Positions 14,286 through 23,036 of a DNA stretch of 64,000 bases are shown here, piece by piece; position 1 is the first letter of the stretch, and the number at the start of each line of letters is the position of its first letter. Origin of the DNA: Vulcanimicrobiota bacterium. Its GTDB lineage: Bacteria > Vulcanimicrobiota > Vulcanimicrobiia > Eremiobacterales > Eremiobacteraceae. Under the pieces are notes generated by a model that was not told the origin of the DNA, did not search any database, and worked only from the letters and a program-made list of their open reading frames with translations. The translations under genes were made by a program, and so were the position numbers. The DNA lies in NCBI GenBank assembly GCA_963812135.1, contig CAWETU010000001.1, positions 1,856,001-1,920,000 of the forward strand, given 5' to 3'.

Positions 14286-14933
14286 CTAATAGAGCTCGAC
14301 TTCGCTGAGATTCTTTTCGATCTTGCGCTTGACGCGCTGTAGTGCGTTGTCGATCGACTTGACGTGGCGGTTGAGATCGCGCGCCATCTCTTGGTACGAC
14401 TTGCCCTCGAGATAGCTCAGCAGCACCTGCGACTCGAGGTCGCTCAGGTTCTCCTGGATCCGCTCCTTGATGTCTTCCGAAACCTCTTGGTTGATGACCA
14501 GTTCTTCCGGATCCGACATCTTGGCGCTCGCCATGACGTCAAGCAGCGTCCGCTCGCTGTCCTCGTCGTAGATCGGCTTGTTCAGCGAGATGTATTGGTT
14601 GAGCGGGATGTGCTTCTGCCGCGTGGCCGTCTTGATGGCCGTGATGATCTGACGCGTGATGCACAGCTCCGCGAATGCCCGAAAAGACGACAGTTTGTCG
14701 GCCCGGAAGTCACGGACGGCCTTGTACAGGCCGATCATGCCTTCTTGGATGATATCTTCGCGATCCGCACCGATCAGGAAGTAGCTCTTGGCCTTGATCC
14801 GGACGAAGTTCTTGTACTTGTTGAGCAGAAACTCCATGGCCAGATTGTCGCCGCACTTGGCCGCATTGACGAGTTCTTCGTCCGCTCGCTCGCTGTAGTC
14901 CAGGGTGTCTTCCGTTTGATGAAGAGCTCCCAA
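14286..14933 (-). CDS. sigH: RNA polymerase sigma factor SigH (Spo0H family)
   Basis: KAKSYFLIGADREDIIQEGMIGLYKA, TATRQKHIPLN, HVKSIDNALQRVKRK; follows rlmB as in Bacillota. Confidence 0.95.
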   Translation of the reverse strand: MGALHQTEDTLDYSERADEELVNAAKCGDNLAMEFLLNKYKNFVRIKAKSYFLIGADREDIIQEGMIGLYKAVRDFRADKLSSFRAFAELCITRQIITAIKTATRQKHIPLNQYISLNKPIYDEDSERTLLDVMASAKMSDPEELVINQEVSEDIKERIQENLSDLESQVLLSYLEGKSYQEMARDLNRHVKSIDNALQRVKRKIEKNLSEVELY

Positions 14934-15057
14934 AGTGTTGATGAACCTCCCAGCCCATGTCTGGCATTCTTATGCCTGCATTATGTCCCTACCGATTATA
15001 GGGGGAGGCTCCTCTTTCGTCAAGGATTGACGGGACTTTGCGCATTTGTGCCGATTT

Positions 15058-15810
15058 TCACAAGCCGGCCGCGCTACGCTGACGTAATACCTCATACAAC
15101 ACGACCGCAGTCGCCGCTGCCGCGTTGAGCGATGCGACCTTGCCGAGCATCGGGATCGAGACCAAAAAGTCGCAACGCTCAGACACCAGGCGCGATAAGC
15201 CTTTGCCCTCGCTGCCGACCACCAGGGTGCACTTCCCCTTGAAGTCCGCCTGCGTGTACGGGCGCGCCTCGGGGCGGTTGGAGAGCCCGCTTACCCAATG
15301 GCCGTCGGCCTTGAGGTCTTCCAGCACCCGCACCAAATTCGGGACAACAGCCACTGGCAGGTGGGACGCAGCCCCGGCAGCCGCCCGCCTGGTCGCTGCC
15401 GTCACCCCCGCCGCGCGGCGATCGGGAATCACGAGGCCATGGGCCCCCGCGCTTTCGGCGGCGCGCATGATCGCCCCCAAGTTCTGCGGGTCTTCGATAT
15501 GATCGGCTACCACGATCAGCGCGTCGTTCTTGCCGGCGATGCGCCGGCGCAGCTGCGCCCACTCTGCCGGCTCGAACGCGGCGACCGTCGCCGCGACGTG
15601 CTGATGGCGGACGTTTCCAAAACGCCTGAAAAAGCTCTCCGGTTCGATCTTGATGGCGATACCGCGGTGCTTGGCCTCGTTCACGATCTCTTTGAGCGCC
15701 GGGTCATTTTGACGGTGCTGCGCGATCGCGATCCGTTTCACCGACTCGCCGCCGGCAAGCGCTTCCGACACGGAGTGGATGCCGACGATCGTCTCGTCAG
15801 CTTCCGCCAT
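15058..15810 (-). CDS. rlmB: 23S rRNA G2251 2'-O-methyltransferase
   Basis: SPOUT motifs IEDPQNLGAIMR, GSEGKGLS, IPMLGKVASLN. Confidence 0.92.
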   Translation of the reverse strand: MAEADETIVGIHSVSEALAGGESVKRIAIAQHRQNDPALKEIVNEAKHRGIAIKIEPESFFRRFGNVRHQHVAATVAAFEPAEWAQLRRRIAGKNDALIVVADHIEDPQNLGAIMRAAESAGAHGLVIPDRRAAGVTAATRRAAAGAASHLPVAVVPNLVRVLEDLKADGHWVSGLSNRPEARPYTQADFKGKCTLVVGSEGKGLSRLVSERCDFLVSIPMLGKVASLNAAAATAVVLYEVLRQRSAAGL

Positions 15811-17272
15811 CGACGCTCCACTGCGAGCCTTGCGCGGTGTCTTTCACCGCGATGCCCGCGCGCGCGAGCGCATCGCGCAGCGTATCGGATTTCTTCCAAT
15901 CCTTGGCGAGGCGCGCTTTGTCGCGCAGCGCGACGACTTTCTCCACAAGCTCGATGTCCGGAGCGTCTCGCTCGCCCGCGATGATCGAGAGCGCGATGCG
16001 CGCGGCGTGATTCAACTTGACCTGTGAGGATTGCGGTGCGACCCCGGCGCGCTCGGCGTCCGGCGGCAAGCCCAGCCGCTCTAAAGACTGTTCGGCCGTC
16101 GCGACGACGTGCGCCGCGCGCGCCGCGTCCGCACCCGCTTTAAGCGCGCCTTTGATGTATGTCTGCAGCCATCCGACGGCGCCCGCGGTGTTGAGGTCGT
16201 CGTCCAAGAACGCGTTGAACTCCTCAATATCTGTAGCGGTCGAATTTATTCCGGCGGCCGACGACGCCGGTTTTGCATTCTCGCGCAGCTTTTCGAGATC
16301 CACGTACAATCCGCGCAGACCCTTGCCCGCGGCTTCGATCGATTCGGTCGTGAAGTTGGACGGCTTGCGATAACCGGTCTGCAAGAAGAGGTAGCGGATC
16401 ACCGCGGCGGGATAGCGGTCGAGCATCTGCGCGAGCGGGATGAAGTTGCCGAGCGATTTGCTCATCTTCTGCCCGTCGACGTTGAGCAAACCGGCGTGCA
16501 CCCAGAAATTGGCCATCGGGTGTTTACCGGTGAACGTTTCGGTCTGCGCGACTTCGTTCTCGTGATGCGGGAAGATCAGGTCAGCGGCACCGCCATGGAT
16601 GTCGATCTGATCGCCGAGATAATCGCGAACCATCGCCGAGCACTCGACATGCCACCCCGGACGGCCCGGACCCCAGGGGCTCGGCCAACTCGGCTCGCCG
16701 GGTTTGGCTTTTTTCCACAGCGCGAAGTCGAGCCGGCCGCGTTTGTCCTCGCGCACGGCCATGCGCACGCCCGCGCGCAGCTCTTCGATGCTCTGATTGC
16801 TGAGCTCGCCGTAACGCGGAAACACGCCCTCGTCGACCGCGAAGTAGACGCCATCGCCCGATTCGTACGCCGCGCCCTTGGCGACCAGCCCAGCGATCAG
16901 TTCTATAATGGAAGCGATTTCTTGCGTCGCGCGCGGTTCTCGGTCAGGCGGCGTCAGTCCAAGACGCTTGGCGCTCGCCTCATATTCGGCGAGATAACGC
17001 GTGGCGACGTCGTCCCATGGCACGCCTTCGGTCTTCGCGCGATCGATGATGCGATCGTCGATGTCGGTGACGTTCTGCACGTACTCGACGTTGTAACCCC
17101 GCGCTTTGAGGTGGCGGCGCAGGACGTCGAACGTCAAGAACGTGCGTGCGTGACCGAGATGCGGATGAAAGCTCGGCGTCATGCCGCAGACATAGACCGT
17201 CACCCGCTTCGGATCGAGCGGCTGGAACTCATCGAGAGAACGGGTCCGGCTATTGTAGAGTCGGACTGCCAT
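15797..17272 (-). CDS. cysS: Cysteine--tRNA ligase
   Basis: HLGH, GRPGWHVECS, DIHGGAADLIFPHHENE, KMSKS. Confidence 0.97.
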   Translation of the reverse strand: MAVRLYNSRTRSLDEFQPLDPKRVTVYVCGMTPSFHPHLGHARTFLTFDVLRRHLKARGYNVEYVQNVTDIDDRIIDRAKTEGVPWDDVATRYLAEYEASAKRLGLTPPDREPRATQEIASIIELIAGLVAKGAAYESGDGVYFAVDEGVFPRYGELSNQSIEELRAGVRMAVREDKRGRLDFALWKKAKPGEPSWPSPWGPGRPGWHVECSAMVRDYLGDQIDIHGGAADLIFPHHENEVAQTETFTGKHPMANFWVHAGLLNVDGQKMSKSLGNFIPLAQMLDRYPAAVIRYLFLQTGYRKPSNFTTESIEAAGKGLRGLYVDLEKLRENAKPASSAAGINSTATDIEEFNAFLDDDLNTAGAVGWLQTYIKGALKAGADAARAAHVVATAEQSLERLGLPPDAERAGVAPQSSQVKLNHAARIALSIIAGERDAPDIELVEKVVALRDKARLAKDWKKSDTLRDALARAGIAVKDTAQGSQWSVDGGS

Positions 17273-17927
17273 CCGGCTCTTCGAGTTTCCGTATCTGTGC
17301 TTCGAGCGCTTCGACGCGTTGCTGGAGCGCCGCGATCGCGTCCGCTTGCGGGTCCGGCATGTCGACCCGCGGGATCACCGACTCGACTTGCTTGCCATCC
17401 CGATAGATCACGCGTCCGGGCACGCCGACGACGGTGGAATTCGGCGGCACCGACTTGACGACGACTGCGCCCGCGGCGATCTTTGATCCGGCGCCGACGG
17501 TGATCGCTCCGAGCACTGCTGCGCCGGCGCCGACGACGACGTTGTCTTCGAGCGTCGGGTGGCGCTTGCCGCGTTGCAGCGTTGTGCCGCCGAGCGTGAC
17601 GCCTTGGTACAGCGTGCAGTTCCTACCGATCTCCGACGTCTCTCCCAAGACGACGCCCATGCCGTGATCGATGAACAGGCCCGAGCCGATCTCAGCACCA
17701 GGGTGGATCTCGATGCCGGTGAGGAAGCGCGACCAGTTCGACAAGACCCGAGGGATCACGGGTAGTCCAAGCCGATGCAGCGGATGGACGATCACCCGAT
17801 GCCACACGATCGCGTGGAAGCCGGGATACGCGAGCAGCACTTCGAGCCCATTGCGCGCCGCCGGGTCGCGTTCGAAGCACGCCCGCCAGTCGAGGCGGAT
17901 TTGCCGGAATATCGAGTCTCGTTGCAT
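17250..17927 (-). CDS. cysE: Serine O-acetyltransferase
   Basis: RDPAAR, TGIEIHPGA, FIDHGMGVV, GKRHPTL hexapeptide repeats. Confidence 0.96.
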   Translation of the reverse strand: MQRDSIFRQIRLDWRACFERDPAARNGLEVLLAYPGFHAIVWHRVIVHPLHRLGLPVIPRVLSNWSRFLTGIEIHPGAEIGSGLFIDHGMGVVLGETSEIGRNCTLYQGVTLGGTTLQRGKRHPTLEDNVVVGAGAAVLGAITVGAGSKIAAGAVVVKSVPPNSTVVGVPGRVIYRDGKQVESVIPRVDMPDPQADAIAALQQRVEALEAQIRKLEEPDGSPTLQ

Positions 17928-17931
17928 GGTG

Positions 17932-18040
17932 TCGTCCTGCTTGTGGCTCGGCCCGTTACGGCCGGCTATTTCTCACGTGCGCGCAGCGGGCGCGCGACCG
18001 GGCTTGTGGCGCGAAGCGCCGGTCAACAACAGCAGGACAA
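17932..18040 (-). promoter_or_regulatory. Anti-Shine-Dalgarno pairing between the leader Leu-Ser-Cys codons and the cysE RBS
   Basis: mRNA UUGUCCUGCU (18040-18031) pairs with AGCAGGACGA (17941-17932): 10 bp with one G-U. Confidence 0.7.
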
Positions 18041-18112
18041 GGCGATGGCCGGGCGGGTGCAGGCGGTGCGAACGTCGGCGGTGGCCATGATGCCCGTGAG
18101 TTCGCTCGCCAT
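18023..18112 (-). CDS. Putative cysteine attenuator leader peptide, 29 aa (MASELTGIMATADVRTACTRPAIALSCCC)
   Basis: GGAGGG RBS before ATG 18112; ends TGC TGT TGT TGA; 95 nt upstream of cysE. Confidence 0.8.
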   Translation of the reverse strand: MASELTGIMATADVRTACTRPAIALSCCC

Positions 18113-18163
18113 GCTTGGCCGCCCTCCGGCTTCACCGACCGGTGCAGGGCCGAACCGCTTCTT

Positions 18164-19675
18164 TCAGCCGGTTTGCGACAGCGCCGAACGCAGCCGAGAT
18201 GCCAGCCGGGCAGGGCCGAGCAACGGCAAGAGCACGGGGAGCTCGATGCCGTGCTCCTGTCCTGTTGCCGCGATCCGTATCGGTCTGAAAAGCGCGCGTC
18301 CTTTGACGCCGTGCTTGGCGCCGAGCGCAGCGAGCGCTTCCTTCGATAACGCGTTGCGGAGGGCTGCGCGATCCTTGCAACCTGCCGCTATGGCAGCGAT
18401 CTCTTCAACAAGCGCGCGGGACGTCGGATCTGCAAGCGCGTCTTGTGTGCCGGGCTCGAGGCGCATTTCATCTTCTAACACTTGCAACGCTAGTGCTGGA
18501 ACCTGATCGAGCGTCTCAACGTGATCGGTCATCGCGTCGGCGAATAACCCGCGCCAGAGCGGATCCTTGATATCCGACGAAGCGGCAACCGCCGGATCGC
18601 GCGCCGCCCATGAAGCGAATAACTCGGCGCGCTCATCGCGCGGCAGCGCGCGGATATAGTGCGCGTTGAACCAGCGCAGCTTCGCGTGATCGAACACCGC
18701 GGGACTCTTGGTCACGCGGTCCAGCGAGAAGGTCTCGATGAGCTCCTCGAGCGTGAAGAACTCCCGGTCATCGCCCGGCGACCAGCCGAGCAGCGCGAGA
18801 TAGTTGATGAGCGCCGCAGGCAGATATCCCTGTTCGCGATACTCCGCGACCGATGTGGCTCCATGACGCTTCGACAGTTTCTGATGGTCGGGCGCGAGGA
18901 TCATCGAGACGTGTGCGAACAGGGGCAACGGAAGCTCGAGCGCTTCGTAGAGCGCCACTTGGCGCGGCGTGTTCGGCAGATGCTCGTCGGCGCGGATCAC
19001 GTGCGTGATCGCCATCTCGGCGTCGTCGACGACTACCGCGAAGTTGTAGGCGGCGACGCCATCTGATTTCAAGATGACGAAGTCGCCGATCGATCCTGCC
19101 GGGAAATGCACCGCGCCGCGCACGAGATCTTCGACGTACACGTCACGCTGCGGCATCAAGAAGCGGATCGCCGGCTTGCGGCCTTCCGCTTCGAGCGCAA
19201 GGCGCTGTTCGCGGGTGAGATCGCGGCATTTGCCGGAATACTTCGGCGTTTGCCCAAGCCGCTCGGCGGCGCGACGCTCGGCTTCGAGCTCCTCGGGCGT
19301 GCAGTAGCACGGATACGCCTGCTCGATCTCGAGCAAACGCGCGACGGCGAGCCCGTAGAGGTCGATCCGATCGGTCTGCCGATACGGGCCGTACTCTCCT
19401 CCGACATCCGTGCCTTCATCCCACGTCAGGCCGAGCCAGCGCATGTCCTCTTGAATGGCGCGTTCGGATTCAAGCGTCGAGCGGCCGGTGTCGGTGTCTT
19501 CGGAGCGCAGCACGAGCACGCCGTGGTTGCGTCTCGCGAAGAGATAATTGAAGAGCGCCGTGCGAGCGCCGCCGACGTGCAGCGATCCGGTTGGCGCGGG
19601 GGCGAAGCGGACTCTCACGGCGCCTGAGCTCGGCTCAGGCGCGACACCCGAGCTGCGCTCGGGTTCTACGTTCAT
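18164..19675 (-). CDS. gltX: Glutamate--tRNA ligase (start ATG 19675 or GTG 19618)
   Basis: VRVRFAPAPTGSLHVGG, CYC/C zinc site, KLSKR. Confidence 0.96.
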   Translation of the reverse strand: MNVEPERSSGVAPEPSSGAVRVRFAPAPTGSLHVGGARTALFNYLFARRNHGVLVLRSEDTDTGRSTLESERAIQEDMRWLGLTWDEGTDVGGEYGPYRQTDRIDLYGLAVARLLEIEQAYPCYCTPEELEAERRAAERLGQTPKYSGKCRDLTREQRLALEAEGRKPAIRFLMPQRDVYVEDLVRGAVHFPAGSIGDFVILKSDGVAAYNFAVVVDDAEMAITHVIRADEHLPNTPRQVALYEALELPLPLFAHVSMILAPDHQKLSKRHGATSVAEYREQGYLPAALINYLALLGWSPGDDREFFTLEELIETFSLDRVTKSPAVFDHAKLRWFNAHYIRALPRDERAELFASWAARDPAVAASSDIKDPLWRGLFADAMTDHVETLDQVPALALQVLEDEMRLEPGTQDALADPTSRALVEEIAAIAAGCKDRAALRNALSKEALAALGAKHGVKGRALFRPIRIAATGQEHGIELPVLLPLLGPARLASRLRSALSQTG

Positions 19676-20148
19676 GTGTCTTTCTCGACGGTTGCCACCG
19701 CGTATGCTGCCATCCCGTCTCCTGTACCCGTGAAACCCAATCCCTCCGTGCGTTTGGCCTTGACGTTGCACGCGTTCTCCGCGACCCCCAACGCATTGGC
19801 CAGCACGGCGCGCATCGCGCCGACGTGTCCGGCGAGCGCGGGCTGCTCGGCCACGATCGTGCAGTCGACGTTATTGACGCGTAGGCCGGCCTGACGCAAC
19901 ATCACCGCGGTCTGTTCGAGCAACTTCACGCTGTGTGCGTTCGCGTACTTGGGATCGCCTGCTGGAAAGCGCGAGCCGCAATCGCCCAAACCTGCGGCTC
20001 CGAGGACCGCGTCGATGATCGCGTGCGTGAGCACGTCCGCATCCGAAAAACCCTCGAGACCTTTGATGAACTGGATACGCACGCCGCCCAAGATCAGCGG
20101 GCGATCGGCCACGAGTCGATGCGCGTCGAACCCGAAGCCGACCCTCAT
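19672..20148 (-). CDS. ispF: 2-C-methyl-D-erythritol 2,4-cyclodiphosphate synthase
   Basis: MRVGFGFDAH, SDADVLTHAIIDA, TEGLGFTG. Confidence 0.95.
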   Translation of the reverse strand: MRVGFGFDAHRLVADRPLILGGVRIQFIKGLEGFSDADVLTHAIIDAVLGAAGLGDCGSRFPAGDPKYANAHSVKLLEQTAVMLRQAGLRVNNVDCTIVAEQPALAGHVGAMRAVLANALGVAENACNVKAKRTEGLGFTGTGDGMAAYAVATVEKDT

Positions 20149-20834
20149 CGCAGCGGCGCCTGCATCTTCTCGGCCATCAGCCGCGCGAGTTCGAGGTCGT
20201 CCGGGGTCGTCACTTTGATGTTGCCGTACGATCCCATCACGAGTTTGACCGGCGCGCCCAAACGCTCCACGAGCGACGCGTCGTCAGTGCCGGTGAAACC
20301 GTCCTTCAGCGCCTGCACGTGCGCGGCCACGAGCACATCATAGGGGAACACCTGCGGCGTTTGCGCCGCCCACAACGAGGCGCGCTCGATCGTGCGCTCG
20401 ACCGCGGTGCCCTGCGCTTGTTTGATCGTGTCCTGCACCGGCACTGCGGCGATGGCGCTCACGCCGTGATGCGCCGCCGCGATCACCCGGTCCACAACGT
20501 CCAGCGTGAGAAACGGCCGCGCGCCGTCGTGCACCAACACGAGTTGCGGAGCGGGCAGCACCGCGGAGAGCGCCGCGTGCACGGATGCTTGCCGCGTGGC
20601 GCCGCCGGCGACGATGCCGCGCACCTTCGACGGCGCATATTCGGAGGCGACCTCTTGGAAACGCTCGCGGTCGTCCGCTTCGCAAGCGATGTAGATCGCC
20701 GAAATCGAACCTGCGCGTTCGAAGAGCTCGAGCGACCACGCCGCGAGCGGCTTGCCCCCAAGATCGAGCAATTGCTTCGGTTTGCCGAGCCGGTCGCCGC
20801 GGCCGGCGGCCGCGAGAATCGCGACAGTGCTCAC
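20145..20834 (-). CDS. ispD: 2-C-methyl-D-erythritol 4-phosphate cytidylyltransferase
   Basis: AAAGRGDR, KQLL, VHDGARP, AQTPQ, NIKVTTPDDL. Confidence 0.95.
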   Translation of the reverse strand: MSTVAILAAAGRGDRLGKPKQLLDLGGKPLAAWSLELFERAGSISAIYIACEADDRERFQEVASEYAPSKVRGIVAGGATRQASVHAALSAVLPAPQLVLVHDGARPFLTLDVVDRVIAAAHHGVSAIAAVPVQDTIKQAQGTAVERTIERASLWAAQTPQVFPYDVLVAAHVQALKDGFTGTDDASLVERLGAPVKLVMGSYGNIKVTTPDDLELARLMAEKMQAPLR

Positions 20835-21886
20835 GTCTTTTTCGGCCTGGCGAAGATCATCCGGCCCGCAGCCGTCTGCAGCACCGACGTGACCTGGACG
20901 CCGACCGTCTCGCCGATGAGCCGCTTGCCGTTCTCGACGACGATCATCGTGCCGTCCTCGAGATAGCCGACGCCCTGGTTCTGCTCCTTGCCGTCCTTGA
21001 CGATGCTGACCGTCATCTCCTCGCCCGGCAGCACGACCGGTTTGATCGCGTTGGCGAGCTCGTTGACGTTGAGAATCACGACGCCTTGCAGCCGCGCGAC
21101 GCGATTGAGATTATAGTCGTTCGTGAGGATCGGCGCTTCCATCTGGCGCGCCAGCGTCACGAGCTTGCTGTCGACGTCGCGTTCTGGCGCGTCTTGATCG
21201 ATGATCTCAAGGCGGCCGGAGATATCGCGCAAGCGATTGAGTATCTCAAGGCCGCGCCGGCCGCGCGCGCGCCGTATGCTGTCCGCCGAATCCGCGATCG
21301 ACTGCAATTCCTTAAGGACGAATTTGGGCACGAGCAGGCGGCCTTCGATGAATCCGGCCTGCACGACCTCGAGCACGCGGCCGTCGACGATGACCGACGT
21401 GTCGAGCAGCTTTGGCGGAGCGTCGGCGTCGTGCGGTCCGCTGCGCATCCAGCTCGAAAGGCGCTGACGCAATCCGATGCGGATGCCGGTGTACGCGAAG
21501 AACAGCGTGATGAGTGCGTAGATGACGATTGAAATGATCGGCCCGTAGCGCGGGATCTGGTTGATCGGCGCGAAGATCTCGCGCACGAGATAGGCGACCA
21601 ACAACCCGACGACCAGACCGATGGCGCCGGACAGCGCCTCGGCCGGCGCCATCTTGACGATCGACTCTTCGACCGAGCTTGAGACGCGTTCAAAGAAGTT
21701 GGCGAGATACGGCGACAACGCGATGCCGATGAGCGCGAAGAGCAACGGGATGCCGAGATCGCGCAGGTGCCCGAGCGTGCCGGTCTGGCCGGCGAGATAC
21801 GGAATATGCCCGAGCTCAATACCGCCTGCCAAGCCGAGCAAGCCGCACAACAGCGCGAAAATTATTCGAAGTAGTAATTTACCCAA
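20831..21886 (-). CDS. PIN/TRAM-domain membrane protein (YacL family)
   Basis: About four TM helices, KLLDTSVIVDGR, RARGRRGLEIL, TNDYNLN, GVGYLEDGTMIVVE; start probably TTG 21886. Confidence 0.9.
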   Translation of the reverse strand: MGKLLLRIIFALLCGLLGLAGGIELGHIPYLAGQTGTLGHLRDLGIPLLFALIGIALSPYLANFFERVSSSVEESIVKMAPAEALSGAIGLVVGLLVAYLVREIFAPINQIPRYGPIISIVIYALITLFFAYTGIRIGLRQRLSSWMRSGPHDADAPPKLLDTSVIVDGRVLEVVQAGFIEGRLLVPKFVLKELQSIADSADSIRRARGRRGLEILNRLRDISGRLEIIDQDAPERDVDSKLVTLARQMEAPILTNDYNLNRVARLQGVVILNVNELANAIKPVVLPGEEMTVSIVKDGKEQNQGVGYLEDGTMIVVENGKRLIGETVGVQVTSVLQTAAGRMIFARPKKT

Positions 21887-23036
21887 AACCGGCGGGGGCC
21901 GGGAAGAAAGAAGGATGTAAGAATTCGGAGCATGCGGTGTTGGCCAAAAGCCGTCCCCGCGAAGAAAGCCGTACCCCCTGTCCGCCCTCTTCGAGCAGAC
22001 CGGCCTGACGACATTTATTGATGGCAACCGCGAATATCAAGCGTGCGTCCACGCCGAACCGCGCGCGGAAATCCTCGTCCCGGATGCCCTCGCGCGTGCG
22101 CAATGCGAGCATGGCCGCCTCGCCGATGCGCGCCTGAATATCGAGCCGCTCTTCTTCTTCGCGCGGCGAGCGGCCGGCTTCGATCGCCGTGCAGTACCCG
22201 TCGAATGCACGCACGTTGCGGTATCGCAAGCCGTCTTCGTAGCCCGATGCCGACATGCCGAGCGCGACGCAATCTCGTTGCGCCCAATAGCCGCGATTGT
22301 GCCGGCTTTCAAAACCCGGCTTCGCATAGTTGGAGATCTCGTAGCGGTCGAATCCGGCGTGCGTCAACGTCTGCTCGGCCAATTCGAGCAGATCTGCCAT
22401 ACCATCGTCGTCCACGAACTGCTGCGGCGAGCGCTCGAACCAGCGCGCGTACGGCGTGCCGGCTTCGATCGTCAGTCCGTAGACAGACACGTGATCGGGC
22501 GCGCATGCGACGGCGCGCTCAAGCGACCGCGCGAACGAGGCGAGCGTTTGCCCCGGAACACCGGCGATCAGATCGATGCTGATGTTTTCGTGGCCGGCCG
22601 CGCGCGCGGCGGTGATGTATGCCGTGGCCTGCTCGGCGCTGTGATCTCGGCCCAGACGCTGCAGCTCGGCATCGTCGAACGATTGCACGCCGATCGAAAG
22701 ACGATTGATCCCCGCGGCGCGATAGTGCGCGAGATCTTCAGCGTTACGCGATGGATTTGCCTCGAGCGTGCATTCGATGGTGTGTGCGTCGAAGGCGAAA
22801 TGGCCTCTAATCGACGAGAGCAAGCCACTGATGTCATGCGCGCTCAGCGCCGATGGCGTGCCGCCGCCGAAATAGATCGTGGCGATCCCTTCGCTGGGCG
22901 TTGCGATCGTCGAGAGCTCAGCGCGCAGAGCGGCCAAGTATCGATCAATCCGCCCGCGCGCGAACTCCACCACCGCGAAGTCGCAATACGGACAGATGCG
23001 ATCGCAGAACGGCAGATGGACGTAACAACCGGCCAT
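21879..23036 (-). CDS. hemW: Radical SAM heme chaperone HemW (HemN-like)
   Basis: YVHLPFCDRICPYCDF, YFGGGTPS, YEISNYA, HNRGYW. Confidence 0.88.
   Translation of the reverse strand: MAGCYVHLPFCDRICPYCDFAVVEFARGRIDRYLAALRAELSTIATPSEGIATIYFGGGTPSALSAHDISGLLSSIRGHFAFDAHTIECTLEANPSRNAEDLAHYRAAGINRLSIGVQSFDDAELQRLGRDHSAEQATAYITAARAAGHENISIDLIAGVPGQTLASFARSLERAVACAPDHVSVYGLTIEAGTPYARWFERSPQQFVDDDGMADLLELAEQTLTHAGFDRYEISNYAKPGFESRHNRGYWAQRDCVALGMSASGYEDGLRYRNVRAFDGYCTAIEAGRSPREEEERLDIQARIGEAAMLALRTREGIRDEDFRARFGVDARLIFAVAINKCRQAGLLEEGGQGVRLSSRGRLLANTACSEFLHPSFFPAPAGFG

Follow-up and report, generated by a model that had tools for sequence, protein, structure and literature searches.

A cysteine-codon leader ORF ahead of cysE-cysS as a candidate ribosome-mediated sensor of tRNA-Cys charging in a Vulcanimicrobiota lineage

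In Bacillus-type operons a Cys T-box leader lies between gltX and cysE (RF00230; PMC4342826; here and below, published systems are described as far as the accessible parts of the cited reports go). A 64,000-nucleotide stretch from a Vulcanimicrobiota bacterium (the window) keeps the genes for glutamate--tRNA ligase (gltX), serine O-acetyltransferase (cysE) and cysteine--tRNA ligase (cysS) in this order on its minus strand, which raises the question of what occupies the 236-nt gltX-cysE spacer and whether it could couple cysE to cysteine supply. The spacer holds a short open reading frame (ORF) that ends in Cys codons, and the RNA of these codons can pair with the Shine-Dalgarno (SD) region of cysE. 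The initial annotation, made from the sequence of the window, had proposed a Cys-codon leader whose stalled ribosome frees the cysE SD. The comparative data presented here (conservation in 26 of 29 genomes, pairing, reading frame and co-loss) support that proposal, and we consider it likely that the window encodes a ribosome-mediated sensor of charged tRNA-Cys which controls cysE translation. The parts of the element are as follows.

18023-18112, minus strand: leader ORF of 29 codons (MASELTGIMATADVRTACTRPAIALSCCC, then the stop), ending Ser-Cys-Cys-Cys-UGA; homologues in 26 of 29 assessable family genomes
18122-18127, minus strand: GGAGGG, SD-like site of the longer leader form, 9 nt before ATG 18112
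18086-18088, minus strand: conserved in-frame ATG, the likely real leader start, opening a 21-codon ORF (MATADV...SCCC); present in all six genus members
18026-18034, minus strand: Cys codons TGC TGT TGT, the proposed sensing codons, 95 nt before cysE
18023-18025, minus strand: leader stop codon UGA, whose final GA forms part of the base of the following hairpin; TGA in 25 of 25 leaders
18031-18040, minus strand: anti-SD segment, made up of the Leu, Ser and first Cys codons with the T that begins the second Cys codon; it forms helix 1 in the covariance models
17932-17941, minus strand: cysE ribosome-binding region, partner of the anti-SD, with AGGA 7 nt before the cysE ATG

The first candidate for such a position is a T-box, and it was rejected. 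Rfam model RF00230 gave no match at E ≤ 10 in 17700-18500, none elsewhere in the genome, none in 41 genomes of the class and none at nine related loci, while the same model matched upstream of cysE in 10 of 11 Bacillota control loci at 106-124 bits. The statement of the initial annotation that this gltX-cysE spacer carries no T-box is confirmed. A scan of 17700-18500 against Rfam likewise returned no family match even at E ≤ 10. The host had been taken for a Firmicute, which is incorrect: the nearest named records with a similar CysE are labeled Candidatus Eremiobacteraceae (70% identity), Vulcanimicrobiota and Candidatus Eremiobacteraeota, and the class genomes searched are devoid of T-box matches. 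The Candidatus Eremiobacteraceae record carries the same leader as the family locus L016.

To what extent the leader is conserved was judged from the cysE loci of 40 related genomes and six further family genomes. Among the 31 family genomes viewed (G041 was left out), two loci (L005 and L011) are cut by contig ends, leaving 29 that can be assessed; the conservation, pairing and folding counts include the unpublished genomes G016 (L010) and G010 (L021), and the co-loss count includes G013 (L023); the models too draw on unpublished genomes. Of the 29 assessable genomes, 26 (eight of ten genera) have a short ORF 55-100 nt upstream of cysE that closes with a Cys run and TGA, and in the same 26 it is accompanied by a GC hairpin with the stop in its base and by an SD complementary to the Ser-Cys codons. 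The alignment of relatives proposed in the initial annotation thus recovered the terminal Cys run, the stop and the complementary SD. The leader tails read SCCC, SCRCCC, SSCCCC or CCCSC. The only conserved feature of the peptide is the C-terminal Ser-Cys-(Arg)-Cys-Cys followed by UGA; the remaining peptide drifts freely and its length ranges from 9 to about 34 residues. The two other genera have lost the Cys run and the GCAGGAC form of the SD together. Genus g6 has no spacer, its gltX stop lying 17 nt before cysE, and genus g8 has a short ORF at the same place with zero or one Cys; the GCAGGAC SD is missing from both. In a quick tree of GltX, CysE and CysS fragments (midpoint root) the carriers comprise the basal genus g3 and both other clades, and for this reason the element was probably ancestral to the family and lost twice.

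Analysis of the Cys run indicates that its conservation is that of a coding sequence. The last codons of the window leader are TTG, TCC (18037-18035), TGC (18034-18032), TGT (18031-18029), TGT (18028-18026) and TGA (18025-18023). Within the run the first two bases, TG, are invariant and the third alternates between C and T even among close relatives; the length of the run changes by whole codons, from 3 Cys up to 11 among the last 12 residues in L019, with the stop always directly after it. TGT is the rarer Cys codon of the genome, as the initial annotation had expected for GC-rich DNA, accounting for 315 of 2417 Cys codons (13%) in 651 long ORFs of high third-position GC content. In the 25 leaders counted it makes up 51 of 99 Cys codons (52%), and it directly precedes the stop in 24 of 25. 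The leader Ser codon is the non-preferred TCC, used 7.65 times per 1000 codons genome-wide versus 25.4 for TCG. In 15 of the 16 loci in which the gltX stop could be placed, the first ATG behind it opens a frame that runs uninterrupted into the Cys run, and 23 of 25 ATGs between gltX stop and Cys run (intervals of 64-161 nt) are in frame. These frame and codon counts come from related sequences and so are not independent; they support selection on the leader reading frame.

The same observations bear on two other explanations of the conserved spacer. The three-base periodicity, the whole-codon changes with the stop immediately behind and the in-frame ATGs argue, together with the missing Rfam match, against a structured RNA that acts without translation, such as a protein- or ligand-binding leader in which the Cys codons are a by-product of pairing. 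We regard such an RNA as very improbable, even though the UCCUGC/GCAGGA core is nearly invariant in nucleotides, long open frames are common in DNA of 64% GC and most leaders are without a clear SD. A small Cys-rich peptide with a metal or redox function of its own, or a chance ORF, appears extremely improbable. The C-terminal Cys cluster could bind metal and the element is conserved as an ORF; against this, the terminal run alone is conserved while length and sequence of the rest drift, rare codons are favored in the run, and the element occurs once per genome and always at cysE. Among 19 Cys-tailed short ORFs in the genome of the window, only the cysE leader has an SD-preceded gene start behind it, and the other 18 look, by eye, like alternative frames of coding DNA.

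The likely start of the leader differs from the one first proposed. The initial annotation described a 29-codon ORF with a GGAGGG ribosome-binding site, and its sequence is exact; as a start, ATG 18112 is conserved in only two of six members of the window's genus, versus six of six for the in-frame ATG at 18088. The GGAGGG motif is kept in the genus and is followed by a start codon 9 nt behind it in the same proportion, two of six. Genus members L004 and L025 have the 18088-type start only, resulting in ORFs of 9 and 10 codons. The real leader start is therefore likely to be ATG 18088 rather than ATG 18112. Around the conserved ATG some 26 nt (18086-18112 in the window; L002-L006 and L025; GCGCGCGAACCCAYTGTCAYCATGGC in relatives) show conservation at the nucleotide level with non-synonymous changes, and this block could pair with the 5' arm of the hairpin listed below as H2. 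In other genera the leader starts 13-31 nt past the gltX stop, mostly without a recognizable SD. Overall, leader starts lie 13-75 nt behind the gltX stop, inside the spacer, with no promoter-like site called between; a distance of 13-31 nt would fit re-initiation by ribosomes leaving gltX.

The second half of the proposal concerns the pairing of the Cys codons with the cysE SD. Positions 18040-18031 are complementary to 17941-17932 over 10 pairs, one of them G-U, and the helix is present in the minimum-energy and centroid folds. This is the complementarity that the initial annotation had reported around the AGGA 7 nt before the cysE ATG, and its remaining sequence statements on the locus likewise proved correct in every instance. 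At its center the leader UCCUGC pairs with the cysE SD GCAGGA; CAGGA is present in 17 of 20 leaders, and GCAGGA is kept in those. A motif-anchored table, compiled without any structure model, shows an invariant CCUG:CAGG core with flanks that change together. At the inner flank, genera g2, g5, g7 and g9 have C:G and g1 and g4 have U:A, one g2 genome showing U:G; at the outer flank, g1 has C:G where g2 and g5 have G:C or G:U.

Covariance models extended this picture to the family. Model R1, built from seven leaders (alignment A3), matched in 16 of 32 family genomes, once per genome, at known cysE loci or before a cysE-like start. Over 23 aligned leaders 96.8% of the cells of both helices are paired, compared with 87.7% in column shuffles (none of 500 as high) and 35-55% when the partners are slid by 1-3 columns, and changes on both sides occur in 8 of 15 pairs. 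Helix 1 by itself is 96% paired over the 23 leaders, with both-side changes in five of nine pairs, and a 19-sequence alignment that includes one doubtful hit yields the same pairing picture. Pairing of anti-SD and SD, which the initial annotation had proposed to check in relatives, is thus kept through sequence changes, with few independent events behind these changes. An alignment of ten leaders from outside the genus by MAFFT and RNAalifold missed the helix and misaligned one genus by a codon, and the covariance-model alignment was used instead.

Several results weigh against the proposed switch and have to be set beside this evidence. The single-sequence fold has a z-score of -1.66 and is equaled by 12 of 200 shuffles; when the SD region is shuffled, 11% of the versions pair equally well with the window leader tail. 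Across the family the duplex outperforms its shuffled SD controls (p ≤ 0.05) in no more than 6 of 20 leaders (0.11 for the window; mean z -1.55), and an upstream control region pairs almost as strongly (-17.4 versus -19.2 kcal/mol). The pairing in the single sequence of the window is not beyond chance, and it is the family-wide conservation that lifts the element above it. Alignments A4 and A5 were made to fit the structure of the model and so favor it. Since g1 and g4 share a clade in the quick tree, the inner-flank change between U:A and C:G amounts to about one event. Genus g10 (L017) lends the pairing no support (z +0.58), and the g3 leaders have, in place of a clear SD, a CAG-rich partner stretch at 10-18 nt from the ATG. 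Most leaders have no recognizable SD ahead of their start. A mock ribosome at the stop codon also unmasks the SD in silico, so that regulation must rest on dwell time. Finally, cysS is essential, and repression must therefore be leaky or bypassed.

In an effort to evaluate how a ribosome on the leader could influence the helix, 17 leaders were folded with a 29-nt mask as the ribosome footprint. The probability that CAGGA is unpaired was 0.09 for the free RNA, 0.07 with the mock ribosome 12 codons upstream, 0.35 with its A site on the first Cys codon and 0.30 with the ribosome at the stop. Folding with and without a footprint, a check proposed in the initial annotation, thus supports an SD that would open when the ribosome is on the Cys codons.

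The mechanism that these results suggest would operate as follows. With plentiful Cys-tRNA, ribosomes translating the leader would traverse the Cys codons and exit at UGA; the helix between UCCUGC with its flanks and GCAGGAC would then re-form, closing over one to three GC hairpins of which the first holds the leader stop, and would repress cysE initiation to a low level. With scarce Cys-tRNA, a ribosome would stall with a Cys codon in its A site, cover the anti-SD UCCUGC and keep the cysE SD open, allowing cysE-cysS to be made. The enrichment of the rare, wobble-read UGU lies where the ribosome would park. cysS would follow cysE by translational coupling, probably through their 23-nt overlap.

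The hairpins under the helix raise the question of whether transcription termination is the main switch. Three are predicted in the window.

17996-18024, minus strand: hairpin H1, including the leader stop; genus consensus fold, -17.9 kcal/mol, one T in the 12-nt tail
17979-17995, minus strand: hairpin H2, a six-pair stem of G and C only with a five-base loop; genus consensus fold, invariant in the genus
17946-17966, minus strand: hairpin H3, just before the SD; minimum-energy fold

A GC hairpin follows the leader in 26 of 26 cases, starting within the stop codon in 22 and 1-2 nt behind it in the others, and in many leaders the UGA pairs with UCA at the base of the stem. Helix 2 of the models, which is this post-stop hairpin, keeps its pairing through compensatory changes in other genera. 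H2 offers no covariation test because it is invariant in the genus. In the region of H3 the genus members differ in sequence, and by eye could also form a hairpin. With respect to the tail of the post-stop hairpin the genera are divided. In g2, g5, g7 and g9 the 12 nt behind it contain 5-9 T, compared with about two expected at base composition, and a consensus scan calls terminator-like sites at the hairpin in L007 and L010. In the window no terminator-like site was called behind the leader, and the tails of its genus hold 0-1 T in 12, while the window does carry canonical terminators elsewhere (for example 14242-14218). The statement in the initial annotation that no U-tract terminator is present therefore stands for the window and fails for the four sister genera, where the T-rich tail means that the same hairpin may also end transcripts as an intrinsic terminator. 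In the window the hairpin more likely acts as a clamp that would hold anti-SD and SD together, or as a brake at the entrance of a ribosome on the Cys codons.

That transcription attenuation is the main switch, with the post-stop hairpin as an intrinsic or Rho-assisted terminator whose 5' arm a stalled ribosome covers and with SD pairing secondary, is in our view improbable. The position of the hairpin in all leaders, its compensatory changes, the T-rich tails and the terminator-like calls would suit this explanation, and in Rhodobacterales a Cys upstream ORF before cysS ends in a terminator (PMC8632094). The bare tails of the window's genus, in a genome that uses canonical terminators, speak against it. 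Consensus folds furthermore show no mutually exclusive antiterminator and terminator pairings, although the GC-rich repeats could pair in many ways. By footprint estimate a ribosome on the first Cys codon would fall short of the hairpin in g2-type leaders, and a ribosome on the stop codon would block the hairpin as well; with such a geometry termination would need unproven polymerase pausing. Contigs from RNA libraries that run from the leader into cysE also argue, weakly, against it.

These contigs come from four soil RNA libraries and cover the region at a depth of 2-3, with the pieces 17749-18021, 17977-18179 and 17908-18089 joining the leader to the cysE start. They carry no information on strand, ends or levels, may derive from DNA carry-over, and are uninformative in the uncovered parts; they are no more than compatible with co-transcription of leader and cysE. 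A shared RNA end at 18089 was considered and rejected, since one of the two contigs that appear to stop there continues unaligned. Soil RNA-library contigs over 17908-18179, from up to three studies, match at 99% or about 92% identity, and close relatives of the genome are therefore present in those RNA preparations.

Three further candidates around the leader were examined and dropped. Selenocysteine recoding at the UGA was considered since the genome has a tRNA-Sec; the frames past the UGA show no conservation, running for 3 to more than 130 codons before they close, and the loops of the hairpins vary. Outside the window, ARAGORN reports on contig C1 of genome G000, besides the normal 74-nt tRNA-Cys (gca), a tRNA-Sec (tca) and a second, 94-nt tRNA-Cys (gca) (612205-612298, 1985591-1985684). 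An upstream copy of GGCAGGAG as a third pairing partner is absent from the window's genus and lies within the last gltX codons, so that coding explains it. TTGAC at the leader stop resembles a -35 box, with no -10 box behind it by eye and no promoter called by the scan.

The preferred reading of a Cys-tRNA sensor acting on cysE translation can be extended. In g2, g5, g7 and g9 a ribosome on the last Cys codons would also block the possible terminator. A wider version would hold that the whole Eremiobacterota family inherited a two-in-one attenuator: with leaders translated by re-initiation 13-31 nt past gltX, cysE-cysS output would respond both to translation of GluRS and to the charging of Cys-tRNA, and where a T-rich tail is present one stall would both open the SD and block the terminator. 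We consider this wider version rather unlikely.

Searches beyond the family returned little that resembles the element. Two other families of the class were examined and contain no such leader. In a search of 151 phylum genomes with the broader model R2, the hits outside the family were all weak and came from eight genomes; of seven loci inspected six lie in coding DNA and one is the locus L129. A pattern of at least five Cys codons plus TGA matched in 52 of 401 phylum genomes, and a reversed-pattern control gave matches too; among 50 loci inspected only L143, a g3 cysE leader, has the anatomy, and the rest resemble coding DNA or antisense. In 80 cysE loci of other phyla a Cys-run ORF directly upstream was found only in the family's own record L031.

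The locus L129 (positions 1386-1600; genome G084), from a distant family of the phylum, contains a 34-codon ORF (1441-1545) that ends in nine TGT codons and TGA. The UUUCCUGUU of this ORF matches AACAGGAAA just before ATG 1592 of a gamma-glutamyl hydrolase-like (class I amidotransferase) gene, which is followed by a paralogue, and a promoter-like TTGTCA-17-TAAACT lies at 1386. L129 may be a second, independent Cys-sensing leader, whose target gene might release cysteine from gamma-glutamyl compounds; its nine-Cys ORF hints that the design arose more than once in the phylum. At L027 (positions 1294-1485; genome G038, family f3) a short ORF before cysE has four Cys among its last 15 residues (ending in CSSFHRPCCRRCKR and the stop), with a GC hairpin behind it, a TATAAA-containing promoter-like site just ahead and no evident pairing with the cysE start. 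This ORF may be a diverged relative of the leader. In family f2 (L026, L028 and L029) cysE lies directly behind ispF, and within the last 40 nt ahead of it a promoter-like TTGACG…TTACACT/TAAACT is conserved whose end is only a few bases from the start; cysE of this family may therefore be leaderless.

The genes that surround the leader in the window are the following.

18164-19771, minus strand: gltX (glutamate--tRNA ligase), the upstream gene; TIGR00464, 504.6 bits against a cut-off of 289.95
17250-17927, minus strand: cysE (serine O-acetyltransferase), the proposed regulated gene, with its ATG at 17927; TIGR01172, 226.4 bits against a cut-off of 210.65
15797-17272, minus strand: cysS (cysteine--tRNA ligase), overlapping cysE by 23 nt; TIGR00435, 457.8 bits

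The true gltX start probably lies downstream of 19771, because the TIGR00464 match begins at residue 52. The gene at 17250-17927 is the only strong cysE match in the genome. The full order on the minus strand is ispD-ispF-gltX-leader-cysE-cysS-rlmB-sigH, with gene models above the NCBIfam cut-offs. The region 14286-22027 mirrors the Bacillus subtilis gene order despite its Eremiobacterota-like lineage; the SigH-type sigma factor gene scores 362 bits to the sporulation SigH model, and an ORF resembling a PIN-domain ATPase adjoins the ispD end.

Comparison with published systems places the element in a known class. The closest is Ms5788A of Mycobacterium smegmatis, where the SD region is paired with the polycysteine codons, translational attenuation was demonstrated with mutants that disrupt and restore the pairing, and several Cys loci respond (10.1101/834739). 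Both it and the cysE leader are small ORFs that end in Cys codons before cysteine-metabolism genes, both pair Cys-codon RNA with the next SD, neither has an obvious terminator, and a ribosome stalled for lack of Cys-tRNA frees the SD in Ms5788A, as is predicted for the cysE leader. At least two to three consecutive Cys codons in cis before a cysteine gene, and a Cys tract that pairs computationally with the SD, are present in the window as in the mycobacterial type. The differences are considerable. Ms5788A (Canestrari et al.) is leaderless at its 5' end, whereas the cysE leader appears to be operon-internal behind the gltX stop, belongs to another phylum and has no sequence relation to it; its anti-SD consists of the Ser and first Cys codons and not of the whole tract, its stop codon is built into a conserved hairpin, and its target is cysE-cysS.

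Other systems share parts of the design. The Bacillus Cys T-box has the same place in the gene order, regulates cysE-cysS and senses tRNA-Cys charging, as proposed here; it binds uncharged tRNA and controls a terminator, whereas in the cysE leader a translating ribosome would be the sensor and SD access the output. Switches between T-box and leader peptide at the same gene are a documented theme (PMC2965389). The uORFC-8-2 motif of Rhodobacterales, a Cys upstream ORF with a terminator ahead of cysS (PMC8632094), and the 10-residue Cys leader of Deinococcus deserti cysS (PMC4007540) also place tandem Cys codons in an upstream ORF before a cysS-containing unit and are proposed ribosome-mediated attenuators. 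In these two the pair of Cys codons lies inside the ORF or a stem, whereas the cysE leader has its Cys codons last and paired with the SD; lineages and sequences differ, and the uORFC-8-2 terminator has a U run that the window leader lacks. The Cys leader peptides predicted in Actinobacteria in 2005, without a conserved terminator (Seliverstov et al., PMC1262725), have Cys-codon runs near the stop of short ORFs before cys genes; they belong to another phylum, precede the cys operon and cbs, and in the accessible text are described with a suggested role of Rho and no SD pairing. In ermC and cat leaders a stalled leader ribosome also remodels the RNA and opens the SD of the next gene (10.1101/834739), yet there the stall depends on antibiotic and nascent peptide and acts through a chain of alternative hairpins, in contrast to the direct masking of the anti-SD proposed for the cysE leader.

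A full-text search of the literature, with subscription journals mostly outside its coverage, gave no description of this element or of any Cys leader in a gltX-cysE-cysS operon. The initial annotation had known of no leader for this operon architecture, and to that extent it stands; Cys-codon upstream ORFs before cysS are already in print for Rhodobacterales and Deinococcus deserti, and for this reason novelty had been overrated. The element is probably a member of the already known class of Cys-codon ribosome-mediated attenuators, encountered in a new phylum and operon context.

The cysE leader provides a well-supported case of leader-peptide amino-acid sensing in an uncultured phylum. Its 26 natural variants, which differ in the number of Cys codons (3 to 11) and in whether a T-rich tail is present, document, together with two natural losses, the element across the family, and for annotation they indicate that the spacer holds a real gene of 9-34 codons that ORF callers skip. 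The polycysteine SD-pairing design, proven only in mycobacteria, would thereby extend to another phylum and to an operon-internal, non-leaderless setting. The regulatory need, to make CysE and CysRS when Cys-tRNA is uncharged, would follow the same logic as the Bacillus T-box, and since the leader lies at the exact operon position of that T-box, one regulatory need would be met by two unrelated devices within one gene order.

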